NCBI GenBank assembly: GCA_021735655.1
Contig: JAIPGM010000001.1
Span: 160,001-224,000 of the forward strand
Length of the DNA stretch: 64,000 bases
From: Candidatus Omnitrophota bacterium
GTDB lineage: Bacteria > Omnitrophota > Gorgyraeia > Duberdicusellales > 4484-171
Reading direction: 5' to 3'
Shown: in pieces, positions 1 to 35,873 of the stretch
Position numbering within the stretch: the first letter of the stretch is position 1
Layout of the letters: each line of letters starts with the position of its first letter
Notes under the pieces: generated by a model
The model's database searches: none
The model's input: only the letters and a program-made list of their open reading frames with translations
Told to the model about the DNA's origin: nothing
Translations under genes and position numbers: made by a program

Positions 1-63
1 ACTAATACTTTACTTGGGCAATGGCGAGCTCAAGGAGCCACAGTTAGTGAGCTTTCAGTAGGG

Positions 64-1035: not shown

Positions 1036-4000
1036 CCTTTGGATAACGGAAAAAGCGAAAAAACTAGTCCAATCGTGCGAGCTCCGCCTTTAGATAATGG
1101 CAAGCAAAGCAAATCTCACCCGGCAGTAATTAGCGAATATGAGGTTTCACGGTTTGTGGCTAAAATAGCTCAAACCCGTCGTCAGGAGATGAGGGTAAAT
1201 ATTCGCTCTAGCTTAGGCCTTGAGTCTTTTATTAGTTTAGTTAAGGGGGAGCGTCTTGAAGCCCTTAGAGAAAAAGTTATAAATTTACATCAATCCGGTG
1301 TTAGGAAGATAGTTTTGATGAACGCTACTGAATCTGGTGGTGGCGTTGCCGAGATGATGCATGATATTGTTTCAGTTATGTGCAGCGCTGGAATGGCTGC
1401 TGAGTGGGTTGTTATGGATGGCCACAGTGCTTTCTTTAATGTAACTGTGCATATTCATGAAGGACTTCAGTCGCCAGCCAAGGAAGATATTTCTTTAGAG
1501 GAAATAGCTTTGTTTGACGAAGCCAGTATCGGAAATTTTGAACGCCTTGAGCAGGATGGTTACTTTGATGGACTTGATTTATTTTTTGCCGAAGACCCTC
1601 AGATAGTCGGTCTAATACCATTGATCAGGGCTTTTTATCCAGAGGTTCATCTTGCTTGGCGTTGTCATATTGACACCTCTACTCCTAATCGTCAAATTGC
1701 CGAATTTGTTAGCGATATGGTTAGCGGCCGTCTTGATCCAGTACGGGATAAATTACTCTATGACTATCTTTTAAAGCGTTTAATGAGAGAGGGTATGATT
1801 GGAGCAGCAGTTGATTTTGAACAAATGATGCAGGCTAATTCCCTTTCGGTTAATCTTGCCCAAGTTGCGACTAGAAGATTGTTGGCCGATATAGCTATTT
1901 ATCACACCGAAGAATTTGCTTTAGGATTACATCTCCAAACTAAAGGCGTGCCAACCTTTATTATGCCTCCGGCAATTAACCCTTTTAGTTATAAAAATAT
2001 TCCCCTAGCTGATAATTTTATTCGGGCAACTATGGTTAAATATGGTTTAGATCCCAATAAATTTACGGTTGTTGAAATATCACGTTTCGATCCTTTTAAG
2101 GGGCCGCTGGAGGCCATTCAGGCTTTTGTGCGTTTATTTTTGGATAATCCGGGATTGCAGAATGATTTACAATTTGTTTATGCCGGAAATATGGCTGACG
2201 ATAACCCTAAGGGAAAACGCGATTTTGAAAAGATCGATGCCTATTCTCGCTATCTTAGAAAGAAATTTCCTAAACTTAGGAAAGCCTTGTTTTTGCTCGG
2301 TCTTGGGAATAAACCCGGGACAGTAGCCTTAAATTGGGCCCAGAGACGCAGCTTGCGTGTTGGTGGTCAGTTTGCTCGGCCATTTTCTCGGAAAGAGATA
2401 GGTCGACTCAACGGTGTTGAGATAAATGCTCTTGAGGTTAATGCTTTACAGCAACAACTTGAGATGGAAAAAAGAGACGGTAGGTTAGTTATTTCTTTAC
2501 CGCGTAAAATAGCAATACAGCCTTCATCAAAAGAAGGTTTTGGCTTAGTGGCGGCTGAGGCTACCGGAAAAGGTACTCTGGTTATCGCTTCTTTGATCGG
2601 TGGCCTTAAAGCGCAATTAAAGGATTTGCTTGCGCAAGCTTCTTGGTTGGGCATTAACTATACGCCGGAGGAAATTAGTCAATCTTTAGAGGTGTATGAC
2701 TCAATGGATTCTGATCAGCATAGAGGTGTTGTTTTCGATGTGGCTTATTTGGAAAGAATTAATTTATATCAACGGCTTAATCAACGAGAATTCGTTTTGG
2801 GTTTAGCTACCTCTCTGCGGGTGGCTTACGAACTGGCTCATAAAAATCCAGATGTCTATCGAGAGCTCGGTTTAGCTGCACGTTGCCAGACTTTAGATAA
2901 GTTTATTACTCTAGCTAATGTTGAGAACCGCTTAGCCGCCGCTTCCTTGATTGTTGATAATCAGCAGCCCTTGGATAATGGTAAGCCAGAAGTTCCGATG
3001 CCTTCTTCTTATTGGATCGATCATAGCCTTCTTCATGAAATTGATAATGTTTGGGCTAACTTGGATTGGATTAATCCCGGGCCAAGTTTAAGCATAGCTC
3101 GCCAGATTGAGAAAAATTTTAAGCCAGCACAAGAGCCAGGTTTTTTAAGAGTTAGCATAGATGCCTTTGGTCCGCTTAACGGATTTAAAAATCAAGTATT
3201 AGCTGAACATGAGCAGTATTTTGATTCCGAGGTTTATAAAGATTATCGAGCTGGCATAATTCATGCTATTGATAATCTTTGGCAACACGGCGGAAAGTAC
3301 GGTGCCTTATTTTTGATGGCTCAGCTTAGAGGACGAACCGTACGCTTTACTTATTGTTTGCTAGATCGCGGTGATGGTTTTATTAATGACGATTACAACC
3401 ATGTTCGTTTAGAAGAAGCCGTTCAGGCACATAGAACATTTAAACGAGCCGGCAAGAATGGTATGGGCCTTTATTATATGGCGATAAAGCCGGATTATTT
3501 TTCAATCACCGCGGTTAATTGCTACCGGGCTGTTGCCACAACTCAAGCTCACTATTGGGAAACTGGCTACACTAAAGAATGGCCGTTTTGCCCGCAACAA
3601 ACTCCGGTTAACAAGGGGGTGCGGGTGATTTCGGTAAAGGATGTAGCTTTAGGCCTTTTGCCATTTTCGAATATGCAGCCGTTAGATAATGGCCGTCGAA
3701 CTGATGAAGAACGCCTGGATTTTATCGGATTTTTAGTTGAGTCATATTTAGAGGCTTTATTTACTTTCCGGAGGTTAAGAGCAAATAACAGCGAAGTAGC
3801 CGAGATGTATCTGCCAGCAATTTCCGAAACTGCCGTTAGAAAGAAACGAGCCAAATGGGTAGTTACAGCTGTTGAGGTTGCCCGTGAGGCATTTCAGGTT
3901 ATGGCTCGAGCTGATTTTCGACATTCATCCGGCTTAACCATTCGTTCAATCTTTGATTCAATTTTGGCTTCTGGCGGTCGCAACCAAGCAGCTAATGATC

Positions 4001-7000
4001 TAGGAGTCGATCGCGCTAGCCTTACTCGCTGGATGCATAGCTTACCTAATGATTTATTAGGTGGGTTAGATCCAGAATTAGCAGTCTTCAAACAAAGAAT
4101 CCTTGATTTATTTGATGAAAACAATACTCGACCCCTAGACAACGGTAAAGAAAATATAGATTTATTAGCGGTTACAGCAGTTAAAAGAGAGGACACCTCA
4201 CCGTGGCTGGCGGGCCCTCTCTCTGCTGTAGCCCCTATATATATAGGTAAACAGCAGGGGCCGCTAGATAACGGCCGAGCGCCTTTGGATAATGGCCAGC
4301 CAGCTAACTTTTGGAAAGTTTTGCATTCTGGTATATACGTACTTCCGATATATTACACTCGACTTTTCGATACAGCTAAAGACGCAGGAATTGGAAAATA
4401 TACTTATGTAGTGCCGTTTGTTCGTGATCATGTATTGTCTTTAGGCCATCAAGCGATACTTTTCTTACCGTTTTCTTTGCAGTTACCTTGGTCGCAATCT
4501 CCTTATGATGCGGCTGATTGGCGTTATTTTAATACTGATTATATTGATTGGGGGCTTATCCCTGAGGCTCAACCTTTTCTAGGTAAGTTCGATTATTACG
4601 GTCATTCACAGCGTAGCGTTGATTTTCGATCAATCCGGCCACGTGAATTATTAATCGGAAAGGCCGCCTTTCTTAATCTCAGAGACAATCGAGAAAAACA
4701 ATACCGCCAGCGCTGGGAAGATTTTCAAAGGTTTGTTAACAATCAGCGAAGTAGAGGGCCGGAGTGGGATTTAACCCATCTTGGTCATTACCGGGCCTTC
4801 AATGATGTCTTGGGTAATGATTTTGGTTTATGGGTTCATGAAGGGATGTATTGCCCTAGGCAGGATACCCATCCAGATGTTATCAAGTACAACGTTGCTG
4901 AGCAAAATAAAAATATGCAATATTCAGATTTAATTCAGTTCTATCAATACCAGCAATGGATTGCTTTCGGCCAGGCTCGCGATATGCTTGAAGGTTTGCG
5001 CAATATTGGTGTCTTTTATCTTTTAGATAATCCTTTCTTTCATGCTAAGGGTGGTATTAATTTTTGGACCCAAAACATCATTTCAAGAGATAGGCATTAT
5101 GAATTTTTTGATCGTTCACCCGGTGTACCCGGAATCGGTAGTGACCCTGAACAATTCTGGACATCTTTGGTTCCTTGGAATTGGCCTAGATTAAGAGAGT
5201 TGGACTATGAACCTTTCTTAAACCCTTATCATTATTATTTAGGTGATTTGGGCGCTCAGGGAGTTCGGGCTGATGCTATTCATTTTCTTTTTCCTTGGAT
5301 TCATTGGGAACGCGGTCCTTATGCTGCTAATTTTCAGAGTTGGGAGTCCCCGGGTCATGATTTACTTTGGAGATTAGACAACGTTTTTAATTCTTATGGA
5401 GCTTTCAGGCTTGGCGAGTTACTTGGCCCGGGTTTTGAAAGTATTCAGAGAATGGGCTTTGATAATTATCACTGGCATTTCTATCGGATGTGGAAATGGG
5501 GTGGCGGACCTGATTTAAATCCGGGTTGGAACGCAAAAGCTTTAGAGTTACATGATGGGCCGCGGGTTTGTGTTGACCATGAACACGGGTTCTATCCTTA
5601 TGCCGGACACGCTTATTTACGGCATCGTTTGGAGGGCCCGGGCGGTCTAAAAGAATTAAATAGTCGTTTCCTTTTAGGCAGTTCGGATATAGCTATGGTT
5701 TATGCCGGAGATGAAGTAGCCGACAACTGGTGGATAAATAACCCTAATCTGCCTGAGTGGATGATGGATCGTAATTGGGCCACTCGAATGCCAATGCAGG
5801 GCGATCAGGATTTTGATCTTTCAGTAGCCTTGTCCATGCTTGAGCATCGCCGTTGGATTGGCCAGCGTCTAATTGAGCGGACGCCTTTGGATAATGGTAA
5901 GCAAGAGTTTAATCATCTTAGCTTGGTTGAATCTAACGGTGAACAAAAGTTATACTCAGCCAGTAGTTTAGTAATATCTCAAAGGGGAGTCTATTTAAGC
6001 CCGACATCAACCGGGCCGAAAGAGGTAATTTCTCAGATTCAACTTAGCCCAAGCGGAATTAAAGTTTCCGGGGAGTTAACTAGCCAGGAGCCAAAATCCC
6101 GGCCAATAGATTATCGTCACTCTTATGAAATTAACTTTTATTTTGAAAAATTAGCTAAAGCCTATGGCCGCGGTTTGTTTGTCGGTATCAATGACGTACA
6201 GCTTTGGATTCGTCTTAGCCAGGCTTTGGGTGATTTTTTATGGGGCGTTTTGCGTCTTGAAACAGGGATTTTTGATATTCCCGATAGAAAATTACGACGC
6301 CTGGTGATTCAGGAAGCGCTTTATCATGAGGTGATGACTAGTGCCTTGGGGCTTTCAGTGGCTAATCGCGGCTTGCGTGAGTTTTTTGCAACCATTTTAA
6401 GTGTCAGCCATTTTTGCTATCTTAGCGAGATAGCTAAAGATCAGGATAAGCTTAATTATCGTTTAGGGATTCTGCAAGCTCTTGATCGGGGTTTAATCCA
6501 GATGAGTGATTCACTGGCTGGGCTATACCGTCAAATTGCCGAGTCTGGCAGTTTACCTGATCCAGCAACCTTGGTAAAAGCAGTTATAACCCATATTAAT
6601 GAAGAAGAACGATACCATAGTGACCGGCGTTCATTTAGGGATTATGTTCGAACTAAGTCCGAGAATTTTAGCGGACGCTTTACAGTCGGAAATCTTACCC
6701 AGGCGGTATTAAATGATTCAGCTTTACAGTTAGAGTTACAGGCAGAGTGGACAAATTTCTTGGGATTTTTAGCTAATTCACAAACCGTAGCCCGTGCCTG
6801 GCAGCCGAAAATTAAATTTATAAGAGGTCCGCGGGGCATAAAGGTTATTAATCCCCAAGGCGTACCGGATCAAGGCGGCTATCAATTCCAGCTGCAAAGT
6901 TTCCGGGCAATTTTTGACTGTTTGGGTTTGCCTAATCCGCTTAGTGAGCCAGCTGCCCTAAATAGATATTTAGGTTTTCTGCCTGAGCCTCCTGAGTATG

Positions 7001-10000
7001 ACTCCCAAGCCGTAAATTTACCGGAGTTAAACATCAGTCAAATTTTACCCGGAGTAGCTGTTGTTTATCCGGATAGTTTGGAAGCTAATCAATTAGCGGT
7101 AAGGCGAGCTTTGTATGAATTGATGAATTTTCGGGTTTGGAAGTTAGCCGTTGAAATACGTGGCGCCTTAGGTACAGAAGATGCTTTGTTTTTTGATCAG
7201 CATTGTCAGGTACATTCCTTTGTTGATGTAGCCCAAGGGTGGATGTTAGATTTAAATCCCCAAAGCCCGATAGTCTATGATGATGTTTTACCCGGCGGCC
7301 AAGCTTACGAAGCGCCGGAGCAGCCGGATTTAGCCGAACATGAGCGATTGCATCAAAAGGCTCAGGCAGTTTTTTCAAAAGTTTGGGCAATCACTATGAA
7401 CAGGTTCTTGCGGGATCAGCGGATGTTTGGCGGTGAAGCCGTGGGTTTAGTTGGCTTTACTACAACCGTACCAATATTATATCGTTACATACAGCAATGT
7501 AAGCATTCTGAGCCGGAATACTCACTACAGCGACCTTTGAATAATGGCCTAGGCATACTTCAATATTTACAATCTTTACGTCGTAGCCAGGAAACCGAGG
7601 CTGCTAGAAGGGTTAGTCTAGACCAAGGCTTTGGGCAATTAAAAAGTTTATTAGTTGAAAAATTACAGTCGATTGATTCAACCACTTTAAGCATTGCAAA
7701 TCTTGATCAGGCTTTGAATGAAGATAGCCAGGCGATATTTTTAACCTTAGAGCAATTAAGAGAGGCACGCTTTCAGGCTGAGAGCTTTCGTAATGGGCAG
7801 GTAAGTATGTGTGATCTTGCTAGCCTAGCTTTGGCCGCTGCCAGCGAAGAAGTTTTTGGCCAGAGACACTTAGTTAAAATAGTTGTTGGCTATTATCGGG
7901 TTGATGAGCAGCTATATAAAAAACATTATTGGGTTGTGATTGATGAAACATTGTTGATTGATATAACTTATGGTCAGTTTGATCCGGACCATCTCAATCG
8001 TATTTTAGTTGCTACAGTAGATGATTACTTGAGATTAAAATTAGAATATGGTACAGAGTTAGAGCCGCTTGATAATGGAAAACAAACTCAAGTTCAGCCT
8101 ACTTGTTTAGAGGCTAGGTGGTGGAATAATTATTATCCCGGGGTTATCGAAGGAACTGGAATAAGGCCGACTGCCCGCTCACTTAGCTTTGAGCAGATCG
8201 AAGAAGTGGTTTGTCTATTACTTCTCGATCAAGCCGGCCAGGAATTGGTAGCTAAAATAATAAATAGAGAACTGCCCGATGTATATCCTTCGGTTCGAAG
8301 AACCGCTCTTAAAGCTATGGTCAGGTTCGATCATTACGAACTTTTTGGCCCGAAGATAATTACTTGTTTGCAGGATGTAGTCAGAGATGGAGCTGAGATG
8401 TATCAGCCTTTTGCTCTTTATGCTTTGGCTCAGACCCCGGCTTTTAATGGCCCGGTTGCCAATAGATTTGCCGAGGAAGCACTTAAGGGGACCCTTAAAC
8501 CAAGCCCAAGAAAGCCTACCGCAGCCGAAAAAACTGCCTTACAGGAAGGGTTAGAGCCAAATACTCAAGCGATTAGATTTAAATCCCGGCTTGCTTCAGT
8601 TGAATATTTAAAAGGAGTTTTAGCTCAACGTCAAGGTTGGGCTCGGGTTTGCCTCGGAACAGTACCACATTTTAGTCGGGTTAGCAATCGCGCTTTAATC
8701 AATAAATTTGCTGCTCAGGTATTAGCAGCTGATAAAAAGCTTTCTTCTAGTTCAGCTCAGCGACGCCAGAAAGATAAGTCAGAATTTTGGGGTCTTGAGC
8801 AAGCTGAGTTTATTCATCCAGCTACTGGCCATGAAGCTTTGGTTGAGCTGGCCAATGATCCGGAGTTATCATCTAGTGATGAAAGTCCTTTGGTTGATCA
8901 AATACTACATCAGATGGAGGAATTAGGTTATGTGCCGATATTGCGACCCAGTAAATTTCAGCTTACTGAGCCAGCTCAAGGTCAGGAAGCTGAAATTGAT
9001 CGCGAGGCGCTTTGGACCAAGGATGCTGTTTTGATGATTTCTACTAAATTCGGAATAGTTCCGGTTTCTTCAGCATTAGCCAATCTTAAGGGCGGTGAGT
9101 TCGTCAGTGGCTATGGTAAGCGCGGCAGCTTTATGATTATTCCGGCAGCCGCTCTAAATTCAAAACAGCAGCTATCTGATATAATTCCCGAGGTTCCGAT
9201 TCATGTATTTCCTTCGGGATTTTTGGTGATCAATGATCAGGGCGTAATTCGTTTAAGAGGAACCTCGCATATTGACACTTCTTTAGGAGCAATTCCGATT
9301 ATGGCCCGGCCAGAATCAGGCCAGTTGATGTTAATCGATCCTTTGTTGCATCAGGTTGCCCGTACACACCCTCGCTATCGCGATCACTATCAATCAGTAG
9401 TTCAAGAAGATGGAGTGCGTTTTATTGATGTGCCCGAGCCTGAACGTCATTTAAATCCTGCTAATTTTGGTATTCTTCCCGGTGGAGAAATATTTATGCC
9501 TTATGCGCCGCGGACTAAACAAGTTTTAATTGAGGCTGGGGTTAATGAGCAGTATATAATAATGTTACCAAGTGAATTTAATAAGTATTTACCAACCCTT
9601 CATGTTTTGGCGGGGAGTATTGGCTGTTTAGTGGCCCAAGCTTTTCATCCGGTTGAGAAGCGAGAGCCGCTCGACAATGGCCATGAAAAAGAAAAACGGC
9701 AAACTAGATCCCGAGCAATAGATATATCAACCAAAGGTGCTGAAGATTTATTGTTTACTGAGCTTCAAACAGGGAGTTTAGTTAGTTTAGTGGTTGATGG
9801 CCTTGAGTATTGGCTTAGCCTTGACCAGGGCGATGAAGTTTGGTTTGATTTATATCGGCCTAAAGATGATATCATTGGCTATATTTATTTTCGAAATGAC
9901 GCAATGCCAGCCAGAAAAATAGCCAATTTTGGCGGCCCGAGCATTGTTCCGGCTTACCGGGGCAGGCATTTGTCGCGAGTTCTTTATTTTGTTTATTTTC

Positions 10001-13000
10001 GTTATCTTTGGCGCAATAATTATATCCCTGAAGAAGACTGTTTGACTATCGATGATCGATTGGCCCTAAAGCTTTATCATGAAGCTAAAAAGTTTTATTA
10101 CGATCAAGACCATACCTTTACTCCGTTTCAGATTATTCCCCGAGCCGAAAAGACTAAAGCTGCAAAACCTTTAGATAATGGCCACGATATGGTTCAAAAA
10201 CAATTATTTGAGTTAATTAAGCGTAAGTCAGATTCGATTAAAACTTTCTTAGAGCCGTTTGAAGCTTGCCTTGCTTACAATGGAGTGTTAGCTTTGCTGA
10301 TTCGAGGAAGGCCTGACTTGAGCGTTAAATTTTTGCTTAAGAAGATTGGCTCGGCTGAGCATTGGTTTTTACTGGCTGAAACTGTTTTAGGAAATCATCA
10401 GTTTGTGGTTGATATTTCGCCGCAAGGAAAGATGTTTACCGATATTGAGGTGCTGGTTGTAGATTGTGCTGAAGCCGGAAAAATAAATTATCTATATGAA
10501 GATTATACTGTAGTTAGCGATCAAGAAACCGAAAACTTATTGCGAGCCTTAGCAAGACAAAAAGGGATGAATGAGTTCTTGCATTTAGTTCATCAATTAC
10601 CAGAAGAAAAATGGATAGGTAGGTTACCGGATAGTGACCAGTCGATGCCACTTGATAATGGTAAATTAATCAATGAAGGTTCAGAAAGTTCTTTTTCCGA
10701 TATAACTAATTCGATGCGGGTGACTTTTGTTATGCCGATGTACAATGAACAGCAACGCTTACTTCCCAAGACTTCTGATAATCCCTATGGTGAAGATGCT
10801 TTAAGGGTTAAAGTAAGTCAATTTAGAGAACTCGAGCAAGAAAATCCTAATTTCCAGTGGCGGCTAATTGCCGTAGATGACGGAACTCCCGGGTTTGCTT
10901 CAGCCAAATGCCTTGAGCAGATTTTGGCTGAGATTGATGCCCAGAATCGGGAATTTAATATCTATTCTAAAGTTTTCGTAGTGGTGATAACTGAACAAGA
11001 AAAGAAACTCCTAGGCAGCCGAAAGGGTGGAGCGGTTTTGCGTGGCTTTCAAGAGGCCCTAAGCCACGGTTGGGCTGATTATATCGGGATTACTGATACT
11101 GATATTTCCAGTAATGTTAACCAAACTAAAGATTTGATTTTGGCTCTTCGCAAAGGTGCTGGAGTAGCCATTGGTTCACGCCGCCAAAGCGGGGCCGAAG
11201 CTCGCGGCATACCGCTTTTAGGGAGAGTTAGCACAGTTATTTATAATTGGTGCATTCGTTTGATTTTGTGGCCGCTTTTTTCAATTCGTGATACCCAGCG
11301 CGGTTTTAAACTTTTTCAAAAAGAAGTAATTGTCAGAATATTACCCTATGCTCGCGATCACCATCTTTCTTTTGATACTGAACTGTTACTTTTGTCGCGT
11401 TTAGCCGGATACCAAATAGCTGAGGTGCCGATTGTCTGGATTGATTCAGCTGAGGCAACTACTTTGGTTATGTCTAAAGATGCTCCAGCGATGCTCTGGC
11501 GAGTGATTAAACAAGCCCGCCATATTTTTAATAATCCTTTTCGCGGCCAAAAGCCGCTCGATAACGGCCGAAAAATAAATCTATCAGTTAGAATGCTCAG
11601 AAAAGCTAGATTAATTACTGTTCATGTTGATGCTGGAGATTGTCCAGCCGCCTTAGCTAGCGCGATTGATAAATTAGTTTCGGGTTTAGGGCAAATCCAA
11701 GTAAGCCGTAGTAATATTGTCTTAAACACCGCCCATCAGAATAGCCCTATGGATATTGTTTCGTCGGTAGGCTCTCTCTCAACTGAACAGATAACAACTT
11801 TATTTCCTGAAGCTGTTTTTCTGATTGCTGGCGGCAATGTGTTTAAATGCTTAAGAAATCTAGTTGAGTCATTGGCTGTCGGCTCAGTGAACAAGCGAAC
11901 TGTTAGGATTTTTGTTCTTTACGATTATACCTATGGCCAAGGCTCTAATTATAGCCCTGAGCAATTAGCCGGTGAATATTATGATTATTTTAGCGATATG
12001 CTTTCAGTCTATAGTGATAGGTTTAATCTAGCTGTATTTTATCTTGCTCAGAATCAATTCGAGCAGGAAATTTACGGTAAAAATTTATCCGGGCCCAATT
12101 TATCTTTAGCAATTATTGAAAAAGAAGCTTTAGCTAGTCAAGTACCTTTAGATAATGGGCGTAGTCTTGGGGAGTTAACTGCCGAAGGCTACAACTTAAA
12201 GTTTCTAGCCCGCAGTTCTGATTTAAGAATGACTGCCCATTGCCGAAGAGATGTAAGTTTTAATAGTTATCTTTATGATTATCGCCTGGATCCAGAGCAT
12301 ACTTATCGTCAAGCCCAATTAGTTCCTTTAGTTGCTCGATCGGTTAAGGAAAATGCTTTTAGAAAGTCTTCTGATTGGCAATACTTGCCGCAGCATTTGA
12401 AAGATTTATACGATTCCGGTAAAGTTTTGATGATTGCTTCCCGAGCCCAAGCTAAAGCTAAGCCTAGCCGGTATTCAGCCTTAGTAATTTCTGGCAGGAC
12501 TGAGGCTTTTAGCGGCCGGATGGGTATTTTACTCTATGACAATCGGCCGATCATTGTTTCAATTTTAGATAAGCCTTTTTTCATTGAAGCTAAAGGAATC
12601 GGGGTTGCTCAAGGAGGTTTTAGCTCAGTGCATCGGCGCTCGGGCCATAGATATGAAGTTACCGGGGCTCAGCGTTGGCAAGCTTCCTTAAAAGAATTTA
12701 CCAGTTTAGAGCTTGAGCGAAAAATCAGCCGATTTTTTGGAACAGCTGATACCCCACGCGCCTTAGCGGCGATAGTCTATAAATATCCTCAAATGGATCA
12801 GTTAATTAGTGATAGCCTAACTAGCCAGGCTGAGCGAAGAGAAGCTAAAGAGCAGTTAGGCGATAGTTTAGGGATAATGTTGCGGCTTTCGCCTTCGAGC
12901 CGCCGCTTTGCTTATAATTTAGAACAGCGTCACATTAGAATGCTTGGTGAAGCTTCAGCCCGCCTGCTTTGTTCTTATCTTCCCCGAGTGCATACTTCGC

Positions 13001-19000: not shown

Positions 19001-22000
19001 CTTTAGATCTAGGGAGATTACTGGCAATGAAGAGTTTTGATGACCAATTACAGGGGGCGGTGGTTTGGATAGCTAATCCAATTAACCCGAAAACTAAAGA
19101 GCCAGTATTTGGTCCTGCTGATGTGGACAGAGTAAATCAAGCTCTTGCTGAAAGAGGTGTTACTGCTATTTGGGGTGATCAGACAGTAGTAAATGAACTA
19201 ATTTATCAAAAGGCAACCGTGCTTTTTCTGGCTGCAACCGCTAATGTTATTAGTGAACTTTCTCAGGTTGAAAGATTGCAGGTTAAGATTATTTCTGAGG
19301 GAGCTAATAATGCAGTTAAACCTGAGTTAAGAGAGCCTTTAAGAAAAGCTAATGTATTTTATATTCCTGGTGAGCTTCTTAACGGCGGGGGCATATATGC
19401 TTCTAAGGAAGATATTCGGCATAACCATACCGATGGATCAGAATTAATAAGGCAACATCGGCAATACTATTATATACATGTAACTGATGAGATCGACACA
19501 TTGGCTCTTCACCGAATGATTTCTTTCCTTGAGATTTGGGCTGAGTCAGCAGGAAATTTTTCTTTTGATTTAACCGTCCATGTAGAAAAAGTTGCCGGCC
19601 GGATTTTTGAAGCAGCTGATAATTTGGTAAGAACCAATAATACACGTTTGAGAAAATTTACCCAAATTGATCAAAAGAGAACCTTTGATCATCAAGCCGG
19701 CCGGCCGACTTTGCCTTGGCGTCATAGTCTTTATGAAATTGCCATTGAAATGGCACCAATGGGAATACTTTATCATTTGCGGGATGTCGGTAGACACTTA
19801 TCTTTACTTAATAGATTTAAGGTTGCAATAAAGGAAGATGGTCAGATAGATAATTATCATATATGTCGTCTGCGTTTTGCTTTATTTGAGTTGACCAAGC
19901 TAGGCTATTATTTAAAAAGTAACCAGCGCAGAAGGTTAATCGGCCTTCTTCCTGGAATAATTACCGATGAAAAGTGTGATGGCCTATTAAGGAAAGATGC
20001 CATGTTTTGTTTGGCAATGGCAATTAGGTGGCAGGAAGAAGAATCCTGTAAATCTGAGGTAGATCGGGCAAGAAAATTATATTTAGGCATATTACAAAAT
20101 CCCCTTGAAAGTGCTCAGCTGCATACCTGGGCTCAGCATTGTCTCTATAGGATTTTCGGAGAAAATTACTTCCGGCGGATAAGCGCTGATTTTGATCGCT
20201 TAAACGGAGTTAACTTACCCAAGCCGCTTGATAACGGTCGGGATAGTTCGGTCGGGATTACCTCAGAACCGTTAAGAATTTTAGCCGAGCTAATTTCGAA
20301 TAGTTATCGGACTAAGGCTTTAGTAGAATTTTTGCAGCCTTTCTTAGATTGTGAATCTGTTAATTATTTACAAGAAGAGATAGCAAAGCATTGCCAGCTA
20401 CCGGCCTGGGGTGTTGTTTCTTCTAGCCATTATCTTGATGAAGGGTATTTCTATTATGGTTTAAAATCCGGTATTGATCGCTGTCTCGAAAGAGGAGTTA
20501 TGGTTGAGAATGACGGTAACAGATTATACGTTACTAAAGATTCAGAGGATACCGTAAAATATAGCGGCCTTGACGAAACTCAAGAAAACCAGTGGGGAAT
20601 TTTTATTTTTCCAAGCGAGTATTTCAATCAGGCTATCAATTGCGGTTATGCCGAGGCCGGCTTAAGGCTTTCACATAACCGCTTAGGCATAACTACTTAT
20701 CCATACTTCAAAAGTTCTTTATCGCTTGCGCCGGCACGCTTTCTGATAATTGATAGATCTAAGGCAGATGAACATAGGCACCTGGAAGGCCAGCCGAAGC
20801 TAAAAGATAAACTTCAAGCCTTGACCGAAGCAGGATTGAAGGTTCTATGGTTGCCGGATTCTTCCGGCCCATTCTTTGACCCTGATTTCCAATATGCTTT
20901 CGGGGAGTTGTTGTTTAGTAATGATATTCCGGAAACCAATCGCTTTCTTTTTTATCCGTCCGCAGATACTCAAGATCTTACAAAAATCATCTGGTGGGTT
21001 TTACAGTCGTTAAGAATGAGTAGTATAAAAAATCGGCTATTACATAATATGGAGTTAGCTCGGCAATTTAAAAAAATCGGCCCCTTTGATAATGGGCGAG
21101 CTGATTTTACAACAGCAGACGAACAGATCGGTAATCTTTTTGCTGAGGCAGTTATTACAGGAGATAATGTTTTAATTGAGACTCATTGGGATGCTGTAGC
21201 GGCTAAGAGAGGCGGCAGTTTGAATATTTTAGAACATGCTGGCTTAAGGATTACAAGAAGTTTAGCTTTAGGAATTGTACCGCGGGCTGGTGAATGGCCG
21301 GATAGGGTTGAAACCGATCAAATCATTCTGAGTTCATCTCGCTATGGTTGGATCGATTCTGAAAGAGATATTGAGCATTTGTTAAGCGGCTTTGATCAAG
21401 CCAGATTGCTTAATTCGTTTAATCTTGGCCATTATTATCAGGGTTGTCACTATCGAAGTTTCCTAAGCTGGCTAGCGGTTTTAAAGAGTAGTCATTTCCC
21501 GGCAGTTATTTTTCATTTCATAGGTGAGCTAATTAATTCTTGGGGTATTAAGCCAGCTGCTAAGAGTGATTTTCCAGTTTTGGCCAGTCGAAGGGATATC
21601 TTTTCTTTCGTTAGCGTGCCTTATGTTTCAGATATAGAAAAATTAGATTTGCCAGTTGCAGTGTTTTTTGATGGTAAGCTTAGTTCGCTTAGGCGTGGCG
21701 ATAGCCGGAAACAGCCAACTTTAATATTAGCTTATTGGCAAGCTTTGAATGGTTTTATTGGTTTTAAAGAACAGATAGCTAGGGAAACAGCAGAATTTCA
21801 GAATACCCCTTTAGATAATGGCCGCAAAGAGCATGACATCTCTGATAGTACGGTAATCCAATGGCCGCTTAATGTAATTGTTAAAGATATGCGCGGTTTA
21901 TCCAAAGGCGAGATATTAGCTGTTGTTAAAACCGGTAAAATATTTTGGGGAAGGGAAATAGTAGGAGCTATTTTTTCTGACCGCAATATTGTTTTTGGTA

Positions 22001-25000
22001 AAGTGGTCGATGATAAGTTTATAGTATTTGATGATTGGTTAATTGAAAGAATTCCTGGAGGATTGTTAGAGGGGTTGCGGAGAAGCATTTTATTTTTGCC
22101 TTATTTAGGAAGTATTTTAAGAAACAAGACATCGTCAATAAATAAACCCCTGGATAATGGCAAGAAATATAATTATCGGCAAGTCCTAGAGATGGTTGAC
22201 TGTTTTGATAGTGCAAGGTTAGAGGCTCACTTATTTAGAGCTCTTGGCAGAGTTGAGACTGAAGCCGTATCTATAGCTGGTGATATTATTAGGGCGGCTA
22301 GAAAATTTGAACGGATAACTAAAGCAGTAAAATCTCTTTATAGGAAAACTTACGGCAAGCTACCTAATTTTACTCTTGCTTTCGATCCTTCCGGTCAAGG
22401 TATGTATGGGGCGTATCAGGAGGATGATACAGCCGGATTTTTTGATCATATTGGCGTAGCTCCAGAAGATGTGCTGCTTGAGGTAGGCAGCGGCGATGGA
22501 AGCATTTCGGATTTCATGGCCCATATGTTTGGGATTAAGGCAACTGGGATTGAGGTTTGGGAGCCATATTATCATTACGCAGTTTTCTTAAGAGATGAAG
22601 CAGTAAGAAGAAGATTCATTCCAGAAGGTAAAGTAGATTTTTTAAATAATAATTTAGTAGATGTTGATTTTTCAAAGTATTCTTTAGTGTACTACGCTGC
22701 TCTTGGCACAAGAAGAAAAAGTGAGCTGGCTGCTAGATTGCTTGGGGTAAGAGAAAAATCCAGGATATTAATTCGGGGTTCACCTGATGAGTTAGTGGAA
22801 GGGATTATCGCATCACATCCTGATTTTAGCTTAAGGAAGCTTGAGATAGAAGTTAATGAAAACCTTACTGGAATTAAGGCAAGGGTTTATACTCGAGAGA
22901 CAATTACCAGTTACCAGCCGGTTCTCGACGTTCCTCTAGATAATGGCCGAAAAAATAACCCTCAGATGGTCAGAGCGCGCTTAGCCGCATTTGAAAAATC
23001 AATCGAGGGCATCGTGCCTAGGGCAGATCCGCTTTATGACCATTTAATTCGTTTTTATCAATATCCTTTGAATAATTTGGGTGAACCTGACGAAGAGACC
23101 TATGTAAGGAATAATACCAAGGAGCAGGAGCGGGAGCTTCTTAGATTCTGGGCCGGCCATTTCGGCCTTCCTAAAAATTACGGCGGTCATGTGACTATCG
23201 GAATCGGTCAGGCTGAATATTATGCCATGTACGTGGCTAGCAATCGATTTCCCAAGGCTATATTTTATATTTCTAATCAGGTCGATAGCCTTCTTTATGA
23301 TACTTTACAGGTGTTGGGCATTGATCAAGGAAGAATAAAGTTAATTAGGTCTTTAGAGAATGGCGAGATCGACTATGGTGATTTAAAGAGAAAGATTAGG
23401 GAGAATTCATCATGGCCGGCGGTGGTCTGCTTGACTGCTGGCAGATTCCTGGGGGCGGTTGATGATTTAGGAAAAGTGGAAGGAATTTTAGGGAGCCTGG
23501 GCCTAAAGCATAAACATATTCATTGCAGCATGTCACCGTTAAGTATAGGCCAGTCGTTTTTGGAAGATGCGGCAAAGATAGATTTTCAACATGGCTTAGA
23601 TAGCATGAGTCTACCGTTGTATCATTTTGTAAGGTGTCCGATGCCAGGAGTCATCGTTCTTACCAGAAGGAAATACCTTCAGAACATTGCTTGTAGTCAA
23701 AAAGCAGCTGAGTATGTTAACTCTAACGACACCACTAATTCTGGATCACGTAGTGGTCATGCTCCGCTTTATCTTTGGTTTGCTACAAAAGTTATTGGGA
23801 CTAAAGGATTTAAGGCTCAGGCTGAGCGGGCCAGGGAAGTTTGTGTTTCTATTAAAGCTCTATTTGACCGTTACGGTTATCCTTGCCGGTTCACCGCGCA
23901 AAAAAATACAATAATCTTTGAGCCACCATTTTATGAGTTGCGTCAAAAATGGGGCTTATTATCACACGGGCAATGGTCCTGTTTTGAGATTGTACCTTAT
24001 TTGACCCCGGTTGAGATAGCCGAATTTGTAAGTGATCTTTTAGGTGATCATTCTCAAGCGGTAGCCGCCCCGGTAGAAACCGTATTTCCGGAACGGATTG
24101 TCTATGAACCGTCTCCGGAAGTCTTAGATGTTTTGGATCAATTAGAAGCAAGGATCCAAATTTTGATGGAAAGATTTTTAGGATTTCCGGCAAATATCGC
24201 CGGCAATGAGACATCTTTTGCTGCCTTGAGCAGCTTGTTTAAATACACCTTGAGAAAAAAGGATGTGGAAGGTTTTCGACACGAAGCCTTGAAATTTTTT
24301 ACTGATCTTTACGGTTTAAGGTACGAAGATTTTTACTGCGGCATAACTGCTGGAGGAACCTGGGGAAATCGGGTTGGCCTATTAGTTGGCCGGGAAAATT
24401 TTCCCGGCGGGATACTTTATTACAGTCAGGATTCGCACTACTCGATTGATAAAGTGGCCAGGAGCCTTAACATGGAAGTAAGAAAGGTCGCCTCTTTGTC
24501 TAACGGCCAAATTGATTATGATGAATTAGCCGAAGCCATAGAGGAAAATCGTGGCCGCCCGGTAATTGTAAATCTTAACATCGGCACAACTATGAAAGGC
24601 GCTATCGATAATCCCCAAAGAGTTATTGAAATATTAAGAGAACAGGATGTTACTGATTACTATATCCATTGTGATGCCGCGCTTTTTGGTATGATTTTAC
24701 CGTTTCTCGAGGCTGCGCCAAAAATTGATCTGGCTAACGGCGTCCATAGTATTGCCATATCCGGACATAAATTTCTCGGCCTACCGATGCCTTCGGGCAT
24801 ATTCATGGTTCGGAAAAATTGTGCTAGGGATAGATTGATAACTATTTCGGATCGATTATTGACTGCCCAAACTGGCCATGTCATTTTGTATTTTTGGCAG
24901 GCTGTTGCTAGCCGAGGGTATGAGGGTTGCAGAGAAGAAGCTATGGCTTGTGTGGATAATGCCCAATATCTTTATTACAGATTACAGGAAAGGGGATTGC

Positions 25001-28000
25001 CTTCGGAGGTAAACCCTTTTTCCAATATAACAATGTTTTCCCGGCCATCGGGTAGCCTAATTGACACTTGGCAGTTAGCGCCTTGCGGGGACCGCGTCCA
25101 CGTAGTGGCCATGCAGCATGTTACCAGAGATAAGATTGATGCTTTTGTCCAAGAGTTAACTAGGGATATGCAGCAAGGGCAGATAGAACTAGCTAGTTCT
25201 ATGCAGCCTCTTGATAATGGTAGACGGCGCAAAGCATCGCTAGTGCCAGAGGTAGGCCTTGATGAATTAGTTGAAAAACATTTAGGAAACTTGAAGTTGA
25301 TATCTTCTGAGTATGGAAAAAGCGTAGGCATGTTATCTACTATTTTAAGACGACCAGACAATGAGAGCCTTCAACAAAGAGCAGAGGAGTTGAGGAAGAT
25401 TGGTCCTGGCCGTCTGGCCTTAGCAGCTGACTTAGGCGAATTCGGAGTAGATAGTTTGAAAATTGGTCAGAAGTATGGCGTTGGCCGAAGAACAGCGGCT
25501 AGTTGGCTTGTTAATAATGGATTTGGCGATAGGGTTAATAGCGCTAGATATAGTCGAAGTAGAACATTAAGACGTCAAAAAATAGCTCAGGAATATGAGC
25601 CGATTGCTCGCTTATTAGATGGTGAAGGCAATCTTTTACAGACATTTTATACCCATATTTCTTGGAAAGAGGTATCTGCTTATCCTTTCGCTGTTTTAGA
25701 TGAATTAGAAATCCAAGCTACCGAAGTTTTAAGTTATGGTGGTAAGCAATGGGGTCAGTTTAAGGGGCATGCTGGCCATAGAGCTCGGATAACATTGGAG
25801 TGGGGCTATCCAATAGAAGTTGCTATGTCTAGCAAAAGAGGAGTTGATCAAGGTAGCTATAGAGCCATGCAGCTTAGGACCTATCAGTCAACTCTTTTTG
25901 ATAGAGAGGGGGAACTCTTAGATACTGCTTTTTTCGTTTTTGGTTACGATGAAGATTTATGTCGGGGAACAACAAAAGTTGTTAACTATCAATTAACCAA
26001 GGCTGGAAGAATTAGTATTTTTGGTGATGAACAAATACAGCTAATAAAACATAAACAAGCCTGGGCTAATTTAGTTGCAGTGGATGGAAAGGTGGTCAGG
26101 GCTACCATTCTTGATAGAGAGGGCGGGAATGAGGTTATTACTTATAATTTTTCTCGAGTGTATGATGAAAACAACCGAGTAATTTACACTTTTACTGGAG
26201 GTTTAGAGTTTAAGCAAAGCAGTGTGCCGCCTGCGTTGTTGAAATCTTTAGCTAGAGGAAGAATTGAAGGTATTTACCTAAAAGGTGGTCGTGGCAACTT
26301 AACTATTGGCGGCAGAACTTGGGTTGTTTTAAGTGACTATAAAAATTATCCATGTAGGGCTTATATTGAAGAAGGGCTTGTGGTCAGAGTAGAGGTTTTA
26401 GGTGAAGAAGGAGAGGCTGTTTTTACCAAGCATTCTCACCGCCTTTATGATAGAGAAGATAACTTTGTCGAAGTATTTTATGATTCTATTTCACCAGAGC
26501 GACTTAACCAGGTTGGTTTGTGTCGTAGCAGTCCACTTATTGTGACTCCTTCAGGAGAGTTATGCTTATCTGGAAATCGTTATACTTTTGAAAATGAAGG
26601 CGGCTCTAAGGCTATTGTTTGGATTGAACCCGGAGTTAAGTTCACCAGAAATAGAAAGCCGGATGGTAAAGCAGTTAGAATTGATTTTTATGATCAATAT
26701 ATGCATTATAAGCATACCCGTTATGCAGTCAGAATCTATGAAGATGAAGGAGTTTTAATTGATACTTTTTTTGGTCCAGGATATGCTGAGAAGCTAAAGA
26801 TTTTTGGTGATGTAATTGGCTTTGCTCAACTCGATACGTTAGGTTCTCTTAATATTGGCTACACAACCCATACCTTTACTAAATATGGTGACCCTCGACA
26901 TTTTGTTAGATTTAGTCTACACCAGGCTCAAGTTCTGGATGTAGATGTTCTTGGCCATGACTATTGTCATATCGATAGAGTTGGCTTTGACGCTTGGCCT
27001 GATATGGCTATCGATCACTTTGAAATGGCCCGAATTGTTGATGAGCAGGATCAGCTATTACACACTTTTTGGTACGGTGTTTATTCAGAACGGATTCCCA
27101 ATAGAGGTAGAGCTAGAATTTTAGGGGCGACTTTTACTGCCGGAGGTCACCTGCGACTTGGTAACGAAGATGTTTATCATGATGCGAACTTTCCCGAAGC
27201 TAGAGTAAATGTTACTTATATTGACGGAGAAGTAAGTGAGATATTAATTTATCAGGATGCTCAAGGCAACTCAGTAAATTATCATTATACTAAAAAGCAG
27301 ATAGATAATTATAAGCGCAGAGTGCAATATTATAATCTGCGCGGTCATGTATTCGAGCATGCTTTAAGAGTTGCCTTACCTTTTTTAAGCGACTGCCCTT
27401 TTGATTATCAAAAGCGCATTGGTGGTGAAGTTGATGGGTGGGTTGATGGTGAAGCTGAACCAAAGCCAGCTGATTCCAGATCACTTAAACGTCCAGATTT
27501 TACTAGTCCTTTTAGCTGGGCAATGAGTGAAGGGGTATTGTGCTATATTGATGCTAAATTCAATCTTAGAATTAAGTTTTTAATAGAATATCTAGAGGCA
27601 ATTAAAGAGACTTTAAGAACTGATTATTTTACTGATTGTGATGCCCCAGTTGAAACACATTTTGTAGGAAGAGTTATATTTGAGATAGTTTATTTAGGCA
27701 GAGTAAGTGAAGCTAATGTAGAGGCAAAGTTAGCTGGTCATCAGAGAAATTTTTCAGCTACCAATTCTGAGATGCTCACCTTGAAACCAGTTAGCTTTCT
27801 TGATGAGTACGGAGATAGGCTTAAGACCGCTGGTCAGGATACTTTAGTAAGGTTTCTGAGACATCTGAGAGTTTTTCATTATAAGCCAGGTCGCAAGAAA
27901 GCCTTAGATAGCTATTTAGCCCAATTAGAACAGGATAAAATTCCCGAGATAGCCGATGAGCAGACTAATCTTTTTTCAAGGCCGCTGGATAATGGCCGAG

Positions 28001-31000
28001 AAAGATTATTGGTTAGTAGCGGTAATAGTCATTTAAAAAGTTTTCGTGAGGCGAAAGGTTTATTAGCAAAATTAAAATGTACAGACATTTTTGGGGTTGT
28101 CATGGGTTATCGCGCTGCCTTAGCTGATAGAGATAATTATCAGAGAGTATTTGCTCGTGATTCTGTTTGGATGGGGTTAGCCGAAATGCTTTCCGGCTGT
28201 AAAGGTAGTTTAGCTTTAACATTAAGCGTATTAAAACATCATCAATGTCGGTACGGACAGAGACGCGGGGCTATTCCGAGTAACATTTCAAGGTATCATC
28301 GGGTAAGTTATGGGACAACTAGCCCAAGAATTGATCCAACCCTTCTTTATATTGTTAGTTCTGGCCAATATTATCGGTCCAGACCAGCCTATTTTCAAAA
28401 ACAGTTTCTCGTTGAAAATTTATCGCCGCTACAAAAAGCTATAGCATATTTAGAAAGACAATGGGTTATGGATAACGGTTTATTGTTTATTCCGATTGCC
28501 GGAGATTGGGCTGATGAATATTTTCAACAAGGCCTTGTTTTGTATGATGAAGTTTTATGGTATATGGCACTTTCAGAGTATGCCTACCTTTTAGCTGAAG
28601 ATAATAATTCTAATTCAGAAGTTTATCAAGCTAAGGCTGCTTGGGTAAAGAATATAGTCAGATCCAAATTTTGGATAAATAAAAATCCCGGTCAAGGCAA
28701 TTTGGGGCATTTCCGTCATTTTTTCAATCAATTACAAAGCCCGAATCAGGCAGCGACATTTGGCTGTCCCTATGATAGCTTTGATGCTTTTGGTAATATT
28801 TTGGCAATTCTTTCCGGCGTGGCTACAGAGGAGCAAACTGCTCAGATAATTAAATATATTGATGTAATTTCAGAAAATAATCAGCCATTACTGGTGCCGG
28901 CACATTATCCGGCAGAAGAAGTTGAACATTTTGTTCACACAGGTGCTCCGTATCGGTATCAATTTAAGAATAATCCCGGGTGTTATCATAATGCTGGTTT
29001 ATGGTCATGGTATACAGGTTTATATGTTGCGGCATTAGTGAAAGCCGGCCGATTAGACCGGGCGGCTAAATTTTTAGAAGGGGTACAGCTAGCCAATGAA
29101 GCTAAGGACTCAAATGGCCGGGGGTATCATGAGTACCATACTAATATTCCCGGTCAATTGAGTAGGCCGGGTGGAGTTAGCAATTTAGGTGTCAGCGCTG
29201 CTGGTTATATAATAGCTCACCAAGCATTTTTTAAAAATAAGATTGTTTTTGGTCAGAATCATCCTTTAGACAACGGCCGTCAGATGCCTGATTATTTTTC
29301 TCCGGTTGGAGACGTCAATGTAACTCTTAATAGTTCTTCAGAAAAAGCCCCCCTTGATAACGGAAGAAATTATTCCAGTTCGCCAATATTTCAAGAGACA
29401 ACCTTTACCTATTGGTTAAGAGTGAGTTTATATTTATTAAGATTTTTGCTTAGTGCACCTTATTATTTTATTATTACTTTAGTTGTATCAAGAATGATGA
29501 AAGGAAAAAACATTTTATTTGTATCTTACCGTATTAATGAATTTGCTTTAGATGGAGTATCTTTAGAAATAAAAGAGTGGCGAAATCTTTTATATCGATT
29601 GGGCGCACATATTTTTCTATTTTCTGGTCATAGCAAAATTGTTCAGGATGGAAGTATCACCGGTCAGGCTCCGGATTGCATTGAGAGTGATTTTCTTGCT
29701 GAACAGGCAACAAAAATAAGAGAGAAGATTGAAAGAGAGGGAAAGCTAGATGCTGAAGATTTTGAATTAATTCATAGAGCAAAAGAGATAATTAAACGCA
29801 ATCTGCGTAAGTGTATCTTGGAAAATAATATTCACTACATTGTTTCGGAAAATGTATTTTGTCTACCGGGAAACCTCGCTCTTGCCGAGGCACTTATAGA
29901 ACTTGCCGAAGAGTTTCCTCGGTTAGGTTTTATTTCTCATAACCATGATTTTTGGTGGGAACGATCCCGCTATTCAAAACATATTCGCACTGATTGTGCT
30001 AGTTACTTAGATAACCTTCATAATCGAATCCGTCGCCAAACAGTCGTTGTTATAAATCAAGGCCAGTTGAGAAATATTTCAGATCATCTCGATGCTGGTT
30101 TGCACAAAGTATTTATTGTTCCGAACGTAAGAGATTTTTCCCGAAAGCCAAAAGTAGATCATTCGTGCGTAGCTAGGCTTAAGACTTATCTAAGACAGAG
30201 GCACGGGATTACTGAAGATTGCCATGTATTTTTAGCACCGGTAAGGCCCGTTTATCGAAAGAATTTAGAACATGCTATTGATGGTTTGGCTAAAGTTCAG
30301 GAAGAAATGGGGGAACCTTTGCTATTTGTTGTAAGCCATAGCGCCCAAGATTCTCAACCAGGTTACGTTGACCAACTAAGAGCTCGGGCTGAAAGCCAGG
30401 GTCTTAAATTTGTTTATCTGGGTGAAGAAGTGCTTTCCGGTCAGTTTAGCTTAGAGACGATATATGCTTTTTGTGATATGGTCATTGTTACTTCTACCTG
30501 GGAGGGTTGGGGTAATGCCACGCTTGAAGCATTTTATTACCAGAGACCAGTTATTGTCTGGCCGTACCAGGCTTACCAAACCGAGATAAAGCCTGTAGGG
30601 CTAAGTTGCTTAGAGGCGCCTGAATTTTCTTCTGAGGTCATTACTTCGATAATTACGGTTTTACGATTTACTTGGTTGAGAAAAAGAATTGCTAGAGGGA
30701 ATTATTGGTTAGCTAAATTACATTTTTCTTACCGAAGGCTTACAAGAGTATTTTTTAAAGTATTTAATAATTTAGAATCTGCCGAAACCAAAACACAACA
30801 ATTTCCGCTTGATAATGGTAAAAAGGGTGAGGGTTCTAAACCAAAACAAAAATTATCTCCTTTCGAGAGATTTAAACAAGACATAGACGAGCTTCTTAGC
30901 AATCCCCAAATCAGGCAAGTAAGCGTAGACAGTATTCTTCAATTTTACGGCCCACGGCTGAAACGCGATGTTGTTGAGGCCCATCTTAAAAGTAAGGGTT

Positions 31001-35867: not shown

Positions 35868-35873
35868 TAGACT

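Follow-up and report, generated by a model that had tools for sequence, protein, structure and literature searches.

The first part of a 64,000-nucleotide (nt) stretch of DNA from a Candidatus Omnitrophota bacterium (contig JAIPGM010000001.1, positions 160,001 to 224,000; the whole stretch is hereafter called the window) is occupied by one giant open reading frame (ORF), the translation of which is punctuated by a short and almost invariant peptide, PLDNG[K/R]. This is a lineage-specific junction peptide, which sits in the linkers between folded modules and is kept by selection at the level of the peptide. While the ORF belongs to a known kind, the giant multi-enzyme proteins of Omnitrophota, its junction peptide is a new feature compared with the searchable literature.

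Giants of the 'Archaeovorin' type, which combine glycosyltransferases (GT), methyltransferases, glycoside hydrolases (GH) and peptidases, have been described from Omnitrophota; protease domains are ubiquitous among them, cleavage was judged probable, and the absence of known cleavage points impedes their dissection (West-Roberts 2023, bioRxiv 10.1101/2023.11.21.568195). Nielsen & Lui 2026 (bioRxiv 10.64898/2026.06.07.730766) distinguish a class 1 of 'multi-enzyme metabolic clusters', single polypeptides that are tiled by many different Pfams. The claim of the original prediction that such an organisation is undescribed in bacteria is thus superseded, since giant multi-enzyme ORFs have been published for Omnitrophota and their post-translational cleavage has already been proposed. 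Neither publication reports a junction peptide, the 2026 text being silent on linkers, motifs and cleavage. In the searchable literature 'PLDNG' occurs in six unrelated papers only, and no natural bacterial enzyme polyprotein or junction motif of giant proteins was found described there.

Like the published giants, the window ORF exceeds 10,000 residues, is tiled by GT, GH, methyltransferase and GHKL-like ATPase modules, is poor in membrane helices, is made up of strongly diverged domains with a large dark fraction, and lies adjacent to an import system. Unlike them as published, it carries a conserved junction peptide, and the visible part of the truncated ORF is devoid of SecA_DEAD-like, C39, S8 and NUDIX domains (none in 10,345 residues, the N-terminus lying outside the window). 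Whether such giants act as one chain or are cut was left as an open problem (West-Roberts 2023), which the junction peptide makes directly testable. It supplies the first concrete candidate sites for testing whether Omnitrophota giants are cut, an objective way to split giant ORFs into modules that can then be modelled and annotated, exact termini to search for in metaproteomes, and a short reporter substrate with which the reader protein could be sought.

The open frame and its junction peptide

Frame +1 of the forward strand is free of stops from nt 1 to the TGA at 31036-31038, which amounts to 10,345 codons, or to 10,324 amino acids (aa) from the first in-frame start, GTG 64; a six-frame check bore out what had been predicted in this respect. 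The ORF crosses the left edge of the window and is 5'-truncated, so that its real length exceeds the visible one. At a guanine-plus-cytosine (GC) content of 38.6%, each of the other five frames contains 684-2063 stops, roughly one every 10-31 codons, with longest open stretches of 115-1058 codons, and the giant open frame is therefore not a product of chance. An independent assembly, the Logan contig SRR12088349_9023 (129,842 bp), matches the window without a single difference over the 21,719 nt compared, including the last 9,960 nt of the ORF, and its gene call for the ORF comprises 8,937 residues and runs to the end of the contig.

The peptide occurs 29 times as PLDNG, once as PFDNG (aa 7028) and once as PLNNG (aa 2512), against 0.0086 copies expected from residue composition; counts and coordinates agree exactly with the earlier reading, as does the claim that such a pentapeptide should be far rarer by chance. 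The following residue is R in 17 copies, K in nine, H in two, and Q, L and G in one each, and never P. Outside the hexapeptide no position of the flanks rises above about 0.9 bit. Elsewhere, across all six frames of the 64 kb, there is neither another copy nor a pentapeptide with one mismatch, the only exception being one junction read on the reverse strand. The codons of the motif match the codon usage of the whole ORF, with all six Leu, four Pro and four Gly codons occurring, and this free variation of synonymous codons means that conservation acts on the peptide and not on the DNA. The copies are old enough for their synonymous sites to be randomised. A DNA repeat or a mobile element is ruled out as the source of the window's motif, its codons being degenerate wherever synonymous change is possible.

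The 31 motifs divide the chain into 32 segments, namely 26 of 113-925 aa, five of 7-43 aa and a C-terminal tail of about 71-72 aa. Five pairs of motifs form doublets, with gaps of 1 to 37 residues between the paired hexapeptides. K (plus H) dominates after PLDNG in the first third of the chain (K7 and R2 before aa 3800) and R later (K2, R15), a clustering with a permutation p of 0.004 over all split points, which suggests either that the chain consists of two blocks of different history or that its junctions have locally evolved in concert. The junctions are as follows:

1036..1053, + strand: junction PLDNGK
1087..1104, + strand: junction PLDNGK, in a doublet with 1036..1053, 11 residues between
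2968..2985, + strand: junction PLDNGK; homologous boundary in the relative L007 (see below) is SLDNDGGRASSP
3679..3696, + strand: junction PLDNGR; homologous L007 boundary is GRASSP
4132..4149, + strand: junction PLDNGK
4261..4278, + strand: junction PLDNGR
4282..4299, + strand: junction PLDNGQ, one residue past the hexapeptide at 4261..4278
5884..5901, + strand: junction PLDNGK
7534..7551, + strand: variant PLNNGL (aa 2512), an uncertain junction with a dark segment on either side
8065..8082, + strand: junction PLDNGK
9667..9684, + strand: junction PLDNGH
10168..10185, + strand: junction PLDNGH
10648..10665, + strand: junction PLDNGK
11554..11571, + strand: junction PLDNGR
12145..12162, + strand: junction PLDNGR
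14332..14349, + strand: junction PLDNGR
15643..15660, + strand: junction PLDNGR
15727..15744, + strand: junction PLDNGG, 22 residues beyond the hexapeptide at 15643..15660
16450..16467, + strand: junction PLDNGR
17344..17361, + strand: junction PLDNGR
17869..17886, + strand: junction PLDNGR
20224..20241, + strand: junction PLDNGR
21082..21099, + strand: junction variant PFDNGR
21808..21825, + strand: junction PLDNGR
22147..22164, + strand: junction PLDNGK
22933..22950, + strand: junction PLDNGR, in low-confidence coil (pLDDT<50) 4 residues ahead of the first helix of the fold; homologous L007 boundary is SSSPGASADNG
25207..25224, + strand: junction PLDNGR, in coil of pLDDT<50 just past the last helix of the fold; homologous L007 boundary is VSSPSP
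27982..27999, + strand: junction PLDNGR
29263..29280, + strand: junction PLDNGR
29350..29367, + strand: junction PLDNGR, 23 residues beyond the hexapeptide at 29263..29280
30805..30822, + strand: last junction PLDNGK, followed by the C-terminal tail, which is basic

None of the 31 motifs falls within the 26% of the chain that is covered by recognised domains or stand-alone homology (P=7e-5), and disorder propensity in the 10 residues on each side of the motifs is above that of random positions (z=5.1). For example, homology to the stand-alone protein P0001 (47% identity, aa 384-985) starts 16 residues past one motif and ends 5 before the next. Similarly, an AlphaFold2 model of aa 7600-8460, built from 13 sequences, reaches a predicted template-modelling score (pTM) of 0.77 and is folded over fragment residues 55-801, while both motifs that flank the decarboxylase in it (fragment residues 46-51 and 804-809) occupy coil at the two margins of the fold, with a predicted local distance difference test (pLDDT) below 50. 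Judged by this model, the motif sites would be accessible to a protease. A two-module fragment, aa 985-1386, for which the alignment comprised only 2 sequences, gave a mean pLDDT of 33, too low to be informative. The expectation that junctions fall in disordered linkers between complete folds thus holds wherever it is testable.

Modules of the chain and their relatives

Segments were identified by Pfam and PDB searches:

1..1035, + strand: module 0 (partial), PNP_UDP_1-like phosphorylase (Pfam E=3e-7)
1102..2967, + strand: TreT-type GT4 glycosyltransferase (Pfam, PDB; stand-alone homologue P0001)
2983..3678, + strand: GHKL-ATPase-like module (DxGxG and GxxGxGL boxes in alignment with P0014; no Pfam match), common to L007
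3694..4131, + strand: dark module, common to L007 at 37% identity
4297..5883, + strand: GH77 4-alpha-glucanotransferase-like module of the GH13 clan (Pfam)
10663..11553, + strand: GT2, DPM1-like (Pfam, PDB)
14347..15642, + strand: PglC/WbaP-type phosphoglycosyltransferase with membrane helix and the Asp-Glu dyad in LDELPQ, followed by ~195 aa of no assigned function
15742..16449, + strand: polytopic membrane module of 241 aa with 4-5 hydrophobic helices
17884..20223, + strand: module with Glu/Leu/Phe/Val-dehydrogenase NAD domain (Pfam, PDB)
22162..22932, + strand: S-adenosylmethionine (SAM) methyltransferase-like module (DOT1 match of 22.3 bits against a Pfam cutoff of 23)
22948..25206, + strand: tandem pseudo-dimeric group II decarboxylase, dependent on pyridoxal phosphate (PLP) (PDB serine decarboxylase, 1e-70)
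27997..29262, + strand: (alpha/alpha)6 glycosidase, GH100/GDE_C-like (Pfam, PDB)
29365..30804, + strand: second GT4 glycosyltransferase (Pfam); a single hydrophobic helix begins ~17-24 aa past the junction

Together, the chain draws on 10 or more families, none of which dominates and each of which is represented once or twice. No internal repeat was found by self-BLAST (E<1e-3), nor any similarity between segments, so that the Pfam and PDB matches and self-BLAST uphold the description of a non-repetitive chain of unrelated, complete enzyme folds. Most of the individual assignments made beforehand were recovered: the PNP-like, both GT4, the GT2, the phosphoglycosyltransferase, the GH13-clan (here GH77), the (alpha/alpha)6, the decarboxylase, the dehydrogenase NAD and the polytopic modules. 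Weaker are the SAM methyltransferase and the P-loop module (E=0.006), the GHKL-like module is recognised by its boxes only, and the GNAT-like and Fis-type helix-turn-helix modules were not confirmed. About 15 segments are dark, with no match even at permissive thresholds, and several of the long segments (729-925 aa) may contain more than one domain. As a whole the content reads like a sugar or glycoconjugate pathway cluster placed in one reading frame.

A Kyte-Doolittle scan places hydrophobic helices only in modules 16 (phosphoglycosyltransferase), 18 (polytopic) and 30 (last GT4), the rest being soluble. In the last of these, the helix WLRVSLYLLRFLLSAPYYFIITLVVS and then RMMKGK (aa 9789-9830, nt 29365-29460) stand between the junction and a cytoplasmic-type GT4. 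The N-terminal half of the decarboxylase has no PLP lysine (DSMxLP is found there), while its C-terminal half is intact, with SGHK (SGHKF). The tandem layout is kept in the aligned Omnitrophota homologues P0006, P0007 and P0008.

Relatives of the decarboxylase module, at 56-62% identity over the whole tandem, come only from metagenome-assembled genomes (MAGs) of Candidatus Omnitrophota and from metagenome contigs. One of them, L007, is a locus of 21,176 nt on an Omnitrophota MAG contig (JBDRAN010000035.1, 107 kb), which consists of one stop-free frame of 7,058 codons and has three modules in common with the window ORF, though not in the order seen there:

L007 2849-3077: corresponds to window aa 987-1217
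L007 3325-4109: corresponds to window aa 7647-8403
L007 6932-7052: corresponds to window aa 1233-1350

L007 possesses a motif of its own, [G/R]ASSP[A/S], with 16 copies of ASSP against 0.16 expected and another five of SSSP, and the flanks of this motif are likewise disorder-prone (z=5.3). At every module boundary common to both proteins, L007 bears its own motif where the window has PLDNG[K/R]. The expectation that a related giant would gain and lose modules while retaining the junctions is therefore borne out in part: modules were gained, lost and reordered, with a junction motif at homologous boundaries, but the motif itself differs. Four L007 junctions are composite, with [LFA]DN[GD]G near [A/S]SSP (e.g. 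SLDNDGGRASSP and PFDNGGRASSP), and because of these the two motifs resemble halves of a single ancestral junction element that have since diverged. In L007 the motif is also conserved as DNA: the 12-mer GCCAGCTCGCCG occurs in 14 copies at no more than one mismatch, all of them in a single frame of the + strand, compared with an expectation of 0.11, and the Ser codons AGC-TCG are strongly preferred at its junctions, whereas synonymous codons of PLDNG in the window are random. Finally, a Trypsin_2 domain with His, Asp and GFSGAP (VVTAGHAF ... GFSGAP) is embedded in L007 at aa 910-1066 (nt about 2729-3199); it sits in a 1,073-aa segment bounded by two ASSP junctions and is a candidate cis protease of that lineage.

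Other homologues of the decarboxylase are free of the motif. L008 and L009 each combine several enzymes (PRK, GNAT, PALP, decarboxylase) in 4.4-4.7 thousand aa, with a transmembrane (TM) helix ahead of the decarboxylase module, and no k-mer is enriched in them, i.e. they have no repeated motif. P0006 (923 aa) and P0007 (1,213 aa) are membrane-anchored and contain the decarboxylase module, likewise without the motif. Further afield, a junction profile of 16 positions, which scored about 13 bits per motif when tested locally, was run against 1.84 billion representatives and revealed no other protein with multiple PLDNG[K/R], a negative that is weakened by the absence of the giant protein itself from the library; it is also missing from a set of 5.8 billion proteins, and giant or truncated ORFs may be under-represented in both. 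The four matches to the profile were weak and unrelated, being FN3 'TPLDNGT[DE]Y' repeats and three small proteins. Protein searches found no homologue of aa 985-1440, which spans three junctions, and with aa 1-994 only the stand-alone TreT-like homologue.

Cleavage and competing explanations

The hexapeptide is nearly invariant while its flanks and codons are free, it lies in exposed linkers, and it changes as a set between lineages; this combination is best explained by one trans-acting reader, which would recognise PLDNG[K/R]. The best-supported reading, quite possible if somewhat short of an even chance, is that the reader is a dedicated and highly specific endopeptidase that cuts the chain at the motif in the manner of a polyprotein. 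Such an enzyme may belong to the N-terminal part of the chain that lies outside the window, or its gene may be located elsewhere in the genome, and cutting would yield separate enzymes together with short spacer peptides, as in a viral polyprotein. Cleavage, the protease and the bond to be cut are what we infer from the ORF, the motif, its conservation as a peptide, its position outside folds and its replacement in the relative.

Several features are in line with cleavage. The modules are complete and have kept their catalytic motifs, such as the Asp-Glu dyad of the phosphoglycosyltransferase and the SGHK lysine of the decarboxylase. The segments between the motifs of a doublet resemble the spacer peptides of polyproteins and do not readily make sense as hinges. 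A site code that changes between lineages, together with a protease embedded in L007, is the expected product of co-evolution between a protease and its sites. Finally, the helix of the last GT4 has its positive flank on the GT side, which is topologically awkward as long as ~4,300 aa of cofactor-dependent soluble enzymes are attached upstream and unproblematic if the chain is cut; this topology argument, itself drawn from crude hydropathy, weakly favours cutting.

The likeness to viral polyproteins (picornavirus 3C, potyvirus NIa/TEV, coronavirus 3CL) extends to unrelated proteins in one chain, a short site per joint in exposed linkers, small spacers, a lineage-specific site code and, in L007, an embedded protease of chymotrypsin fold. 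Unlike them, the window holds a gene of cellular metabolic enzymes, with no protease found in the ORF fragment and with sites that are far more uniform. Bacterial precursors cut by their own cysteine proteases are known from MARTX toxins and the gingipain/HagA polyproteins. These provide a bacterial precedent for a giant precursor cut between functional modules, but their modules are toxins or adhesins that act extracellularly and their sites are of low specificity (after Leu, or after Arg/Lys), unlike those of the window ORF; no CPD, C25 or glycine-rich repeats were found in the latter (Pfam, self-BLAST).

Known short signals do not account for the motif. The 2A/StopGo peptides, with the consensus D[V/I]ExNPG followed by P, resemble it as short Asn- and Gly-containing peptides between proteins of one ORF; they are ruled out here, as NPGP is absent and PLDNG is followed mostly by K/R and never by P, and 2A is not known to work on bacterial ribosomes. 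A double-glycine leader of the C39 type, for which G-G/A/S at -2/-1 and hydrophobic residues at -4, -7 and -12 were taken as the criterion, is likewise ruled out, a cut past the G placing Asn at -2, Leu at -4, Q/N/A/R/S at -7 and no conserved residue at -12. Sortase LPXTG and N-glycosylation sequons do not fit either.

A number of observations weigh against cleavage. The dedicated protease that had been envisaged was not detected: neither the 10,345 aa nor the 33 kb downstream contain a peptidase domain by Pfam (E<=5), NCBIfam (E<=0.1), PDB phmmer, catalytic-motif regular expressions or phmmer with the L007 protease. Homologues with the same modules joined without the motif, which the original prediction regarded as counter-evidence, do exist for the decarboxylase: L008/L009 and P0007 have it without a repeated motif, and fused modules can thus evidently function motif-free. 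The fused, pseudo-dimeric form of this decarboxylase fits an enzyme that is unable to dimerise freely, i.e. one that is tethered. With 29 of 31 sites identical, the sites are stricter than is usual in polyproteins. A cut between G and K/R would expose N-terminal Lys or Arg, which are secondary destabilising residues of the E. coli N-degron pathway. Lastly, the conservation of the L007 motif as nucleotides is not predicted by a purely proteolytic role.

Alternatively, the chain could be an uncleaved, tethered mega-enzyme with the motif as a structural or docking element of its linkers, which we regard as somewhat unlikely, if a serious contender. The motif may then be a tight type I' beta-turn of D-N-G-K/R, xNGK being a classic hairpin turn, or a short linear motif for a scaffold, chaperone or insertion factor. 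Tethering would suit the pseudo-dimeric decarboxylase and the restriction of membrane-like helices to modules 16, 18 and 30. P0006 and P0007 have an N-terminal membrane anchor of their own and L008/L009 their TM helix ahead of the decarboxylase, which suggests that these enzymes are normally membrane-tethered and that connectivity of the chain could replace the anchor. In accordance with this, 46% of long Omnitrophota proteins were classed as membrane-anchored with cytoplasmic domains (Nielsen & Lui 2026). A hinge or turn, however, does not need identity in 29 of 31 copies with fully variable flanks, the doublets are without an obvious structural role, the triple radical-SAM/SPASM and double B12-radical-SAM proteins encoded nearby (see below) as well as L008/L009 are fused without any such motif, and no partner protein was identified. 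The multifunctional enzymes AROM, CAD, FAS and the polyketide synthases and non-ribosomal peptide synthetases (PKS/NRPS) are uncleaved. They share with the window ORF the presence of several catalytic folds of one pathway per chain; unlike it, they are not marked by a conserved hexapeptide at each joint and are built of related modules or use carrier domains, and the Pfam scan of the giant ORF revealed no carrier, ketosynthase (KS) or condensation domain. Were the chain uncut, the motif would mark a novel type of linker element within the largest proteins known.

It is improbable that PLDNG[K/R], and [G/R]ASSP in L007, are sites in the linkers that become modified, possibly by an adjacent or internal enzyme, through glycosylation, phosphorylation, radical-SAM modification or Asn deamidation. 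This would draw on the operon-like array, which encodes maturase folds (the triple radical-SAM/SPASM protein, B12-radical-SAM fusions, a methyltransferase and GT4s), on the resemblance of ASSP to a Ser-Pro modification site, and on the fact that Asn-Gly is the dipeptide most prone to deamidation. The motif is, however, unlike the N-glycosylation sequons D/E-x-N-x-S/T and N-x-S/T and has no Cys or aromatic residue as in SPASM substrates, and the neighbouring genes have no direct link to it. Moreover, radical-SAM domains are listed as ordinary sugar-metabolism content of Omnitrophota giants (Nielsen & Lui 2026).

Still harder to sustain is an origin at the DNA level, in which the motif would be the footprint of in-frame joining or shuffling of cassettes, i.e. 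a recombination junction with the peptide as a by-product; we regard it as very improbable. The L007 12-mer with its non-random Ser codons would fit such a footprint, as would the different module order in the two ORFs. In the window, however, the 15 nt are degenerate at every synonymous position with the amino acids invariant, which is the mark of peptide selection; a functionless scar would have decayed, and no repeat or recombinase is tied to the junctions. An artefact, be it mis-assembly, a chimeric contig or a decaying pseudogene array open by chance, has the metagenomic origin of the sequence as its sole support and is a negligible prospect in view of 10,345 stop-free codons in DNA of 38.6% GC, the identical Logan assembly, the preserved catalytic motifs and the stop-free frame of more than 21 kb in L007.

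If, then, the chain is cleaved at its junction peptide, a wider proposal can be put forward, about which we have rather more doubt than belief: some Omnitrophota may express whole pathways as cellular polyproteins cut at a lineage-specific junction code by a co-evolving protease, a code that would also permit in-frame gain, loss and reordering of cassettes. Homologous boundaries bear different motifs in different lineages, and this suggests that they are recognised by a co-evolving system, a rarity among the metabolic enzymes of cells. If true, this would be the first cellular 'operon as polyprotein' expression strategy and would provide a cleavage map of Omnitrophota giants.

Downstream genes and side observations

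The giant ORF is followed by co-oriented, tightly packed genes, the first of which starts 40 nt past its end on the same strand. None of them carries the motif. They encode an Opp-type ABC importer, an amine oxidase, ABC-2 exporters, fused radical-SAM/SPASM and fused B12-radical-SAM proteins, a methyltransferase and two GT4s. The array and its fusion proteins are:

31079..59590, + strand: downstream genes
39073-42540: 1,155 aa, ABC ATPase domain plus ~1,000 aa of no assigned function, no motif
44887-48741: 1,284 aa, three radical-SAM/SPASM units, no motif
52647-55805: 1,052 aa, two B12-binding radical-SAM units, no motif

Rfam and tRNA scans of the 64-kb window were empty and there is no marker gene in it; a scan of GTDB species representatives with aa 1-350 of the giant ORF gave no match. 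The Logan contig stops at window nt 4225, and the window thus reaches 4,224 nt further 5' than the sole public contig found.

P0005, a secreted-looking protein of 265 aa from a high-GC source, contains ALDNGRD, VPLDNGRG and APLDNGRS in a low-complexity region (E=8e-4), which could reflect chance or independent use of the same peptide. On two JGI contigs that carry P0006, a 1,477-aa protein with an intein splicing domain is encoded upstream (L004:1231-5664 and L005:1386-5819) and overlaps the start of P0006 by 23 nt. Finally, the stand-alone and mid-size multi-enzyme homologues P0001 (aa 6-44), P0007 (aa 5-47), L008 (nt about 3020-3200) and L009, which stem from other Omnitrophota, have a common N-terminal leader resembling a signal anchor, R/KxxILFK[AS]IA[IL].L......DI[STA]WA....ATLA, which is far more conserved than an ordinary signal peptide.

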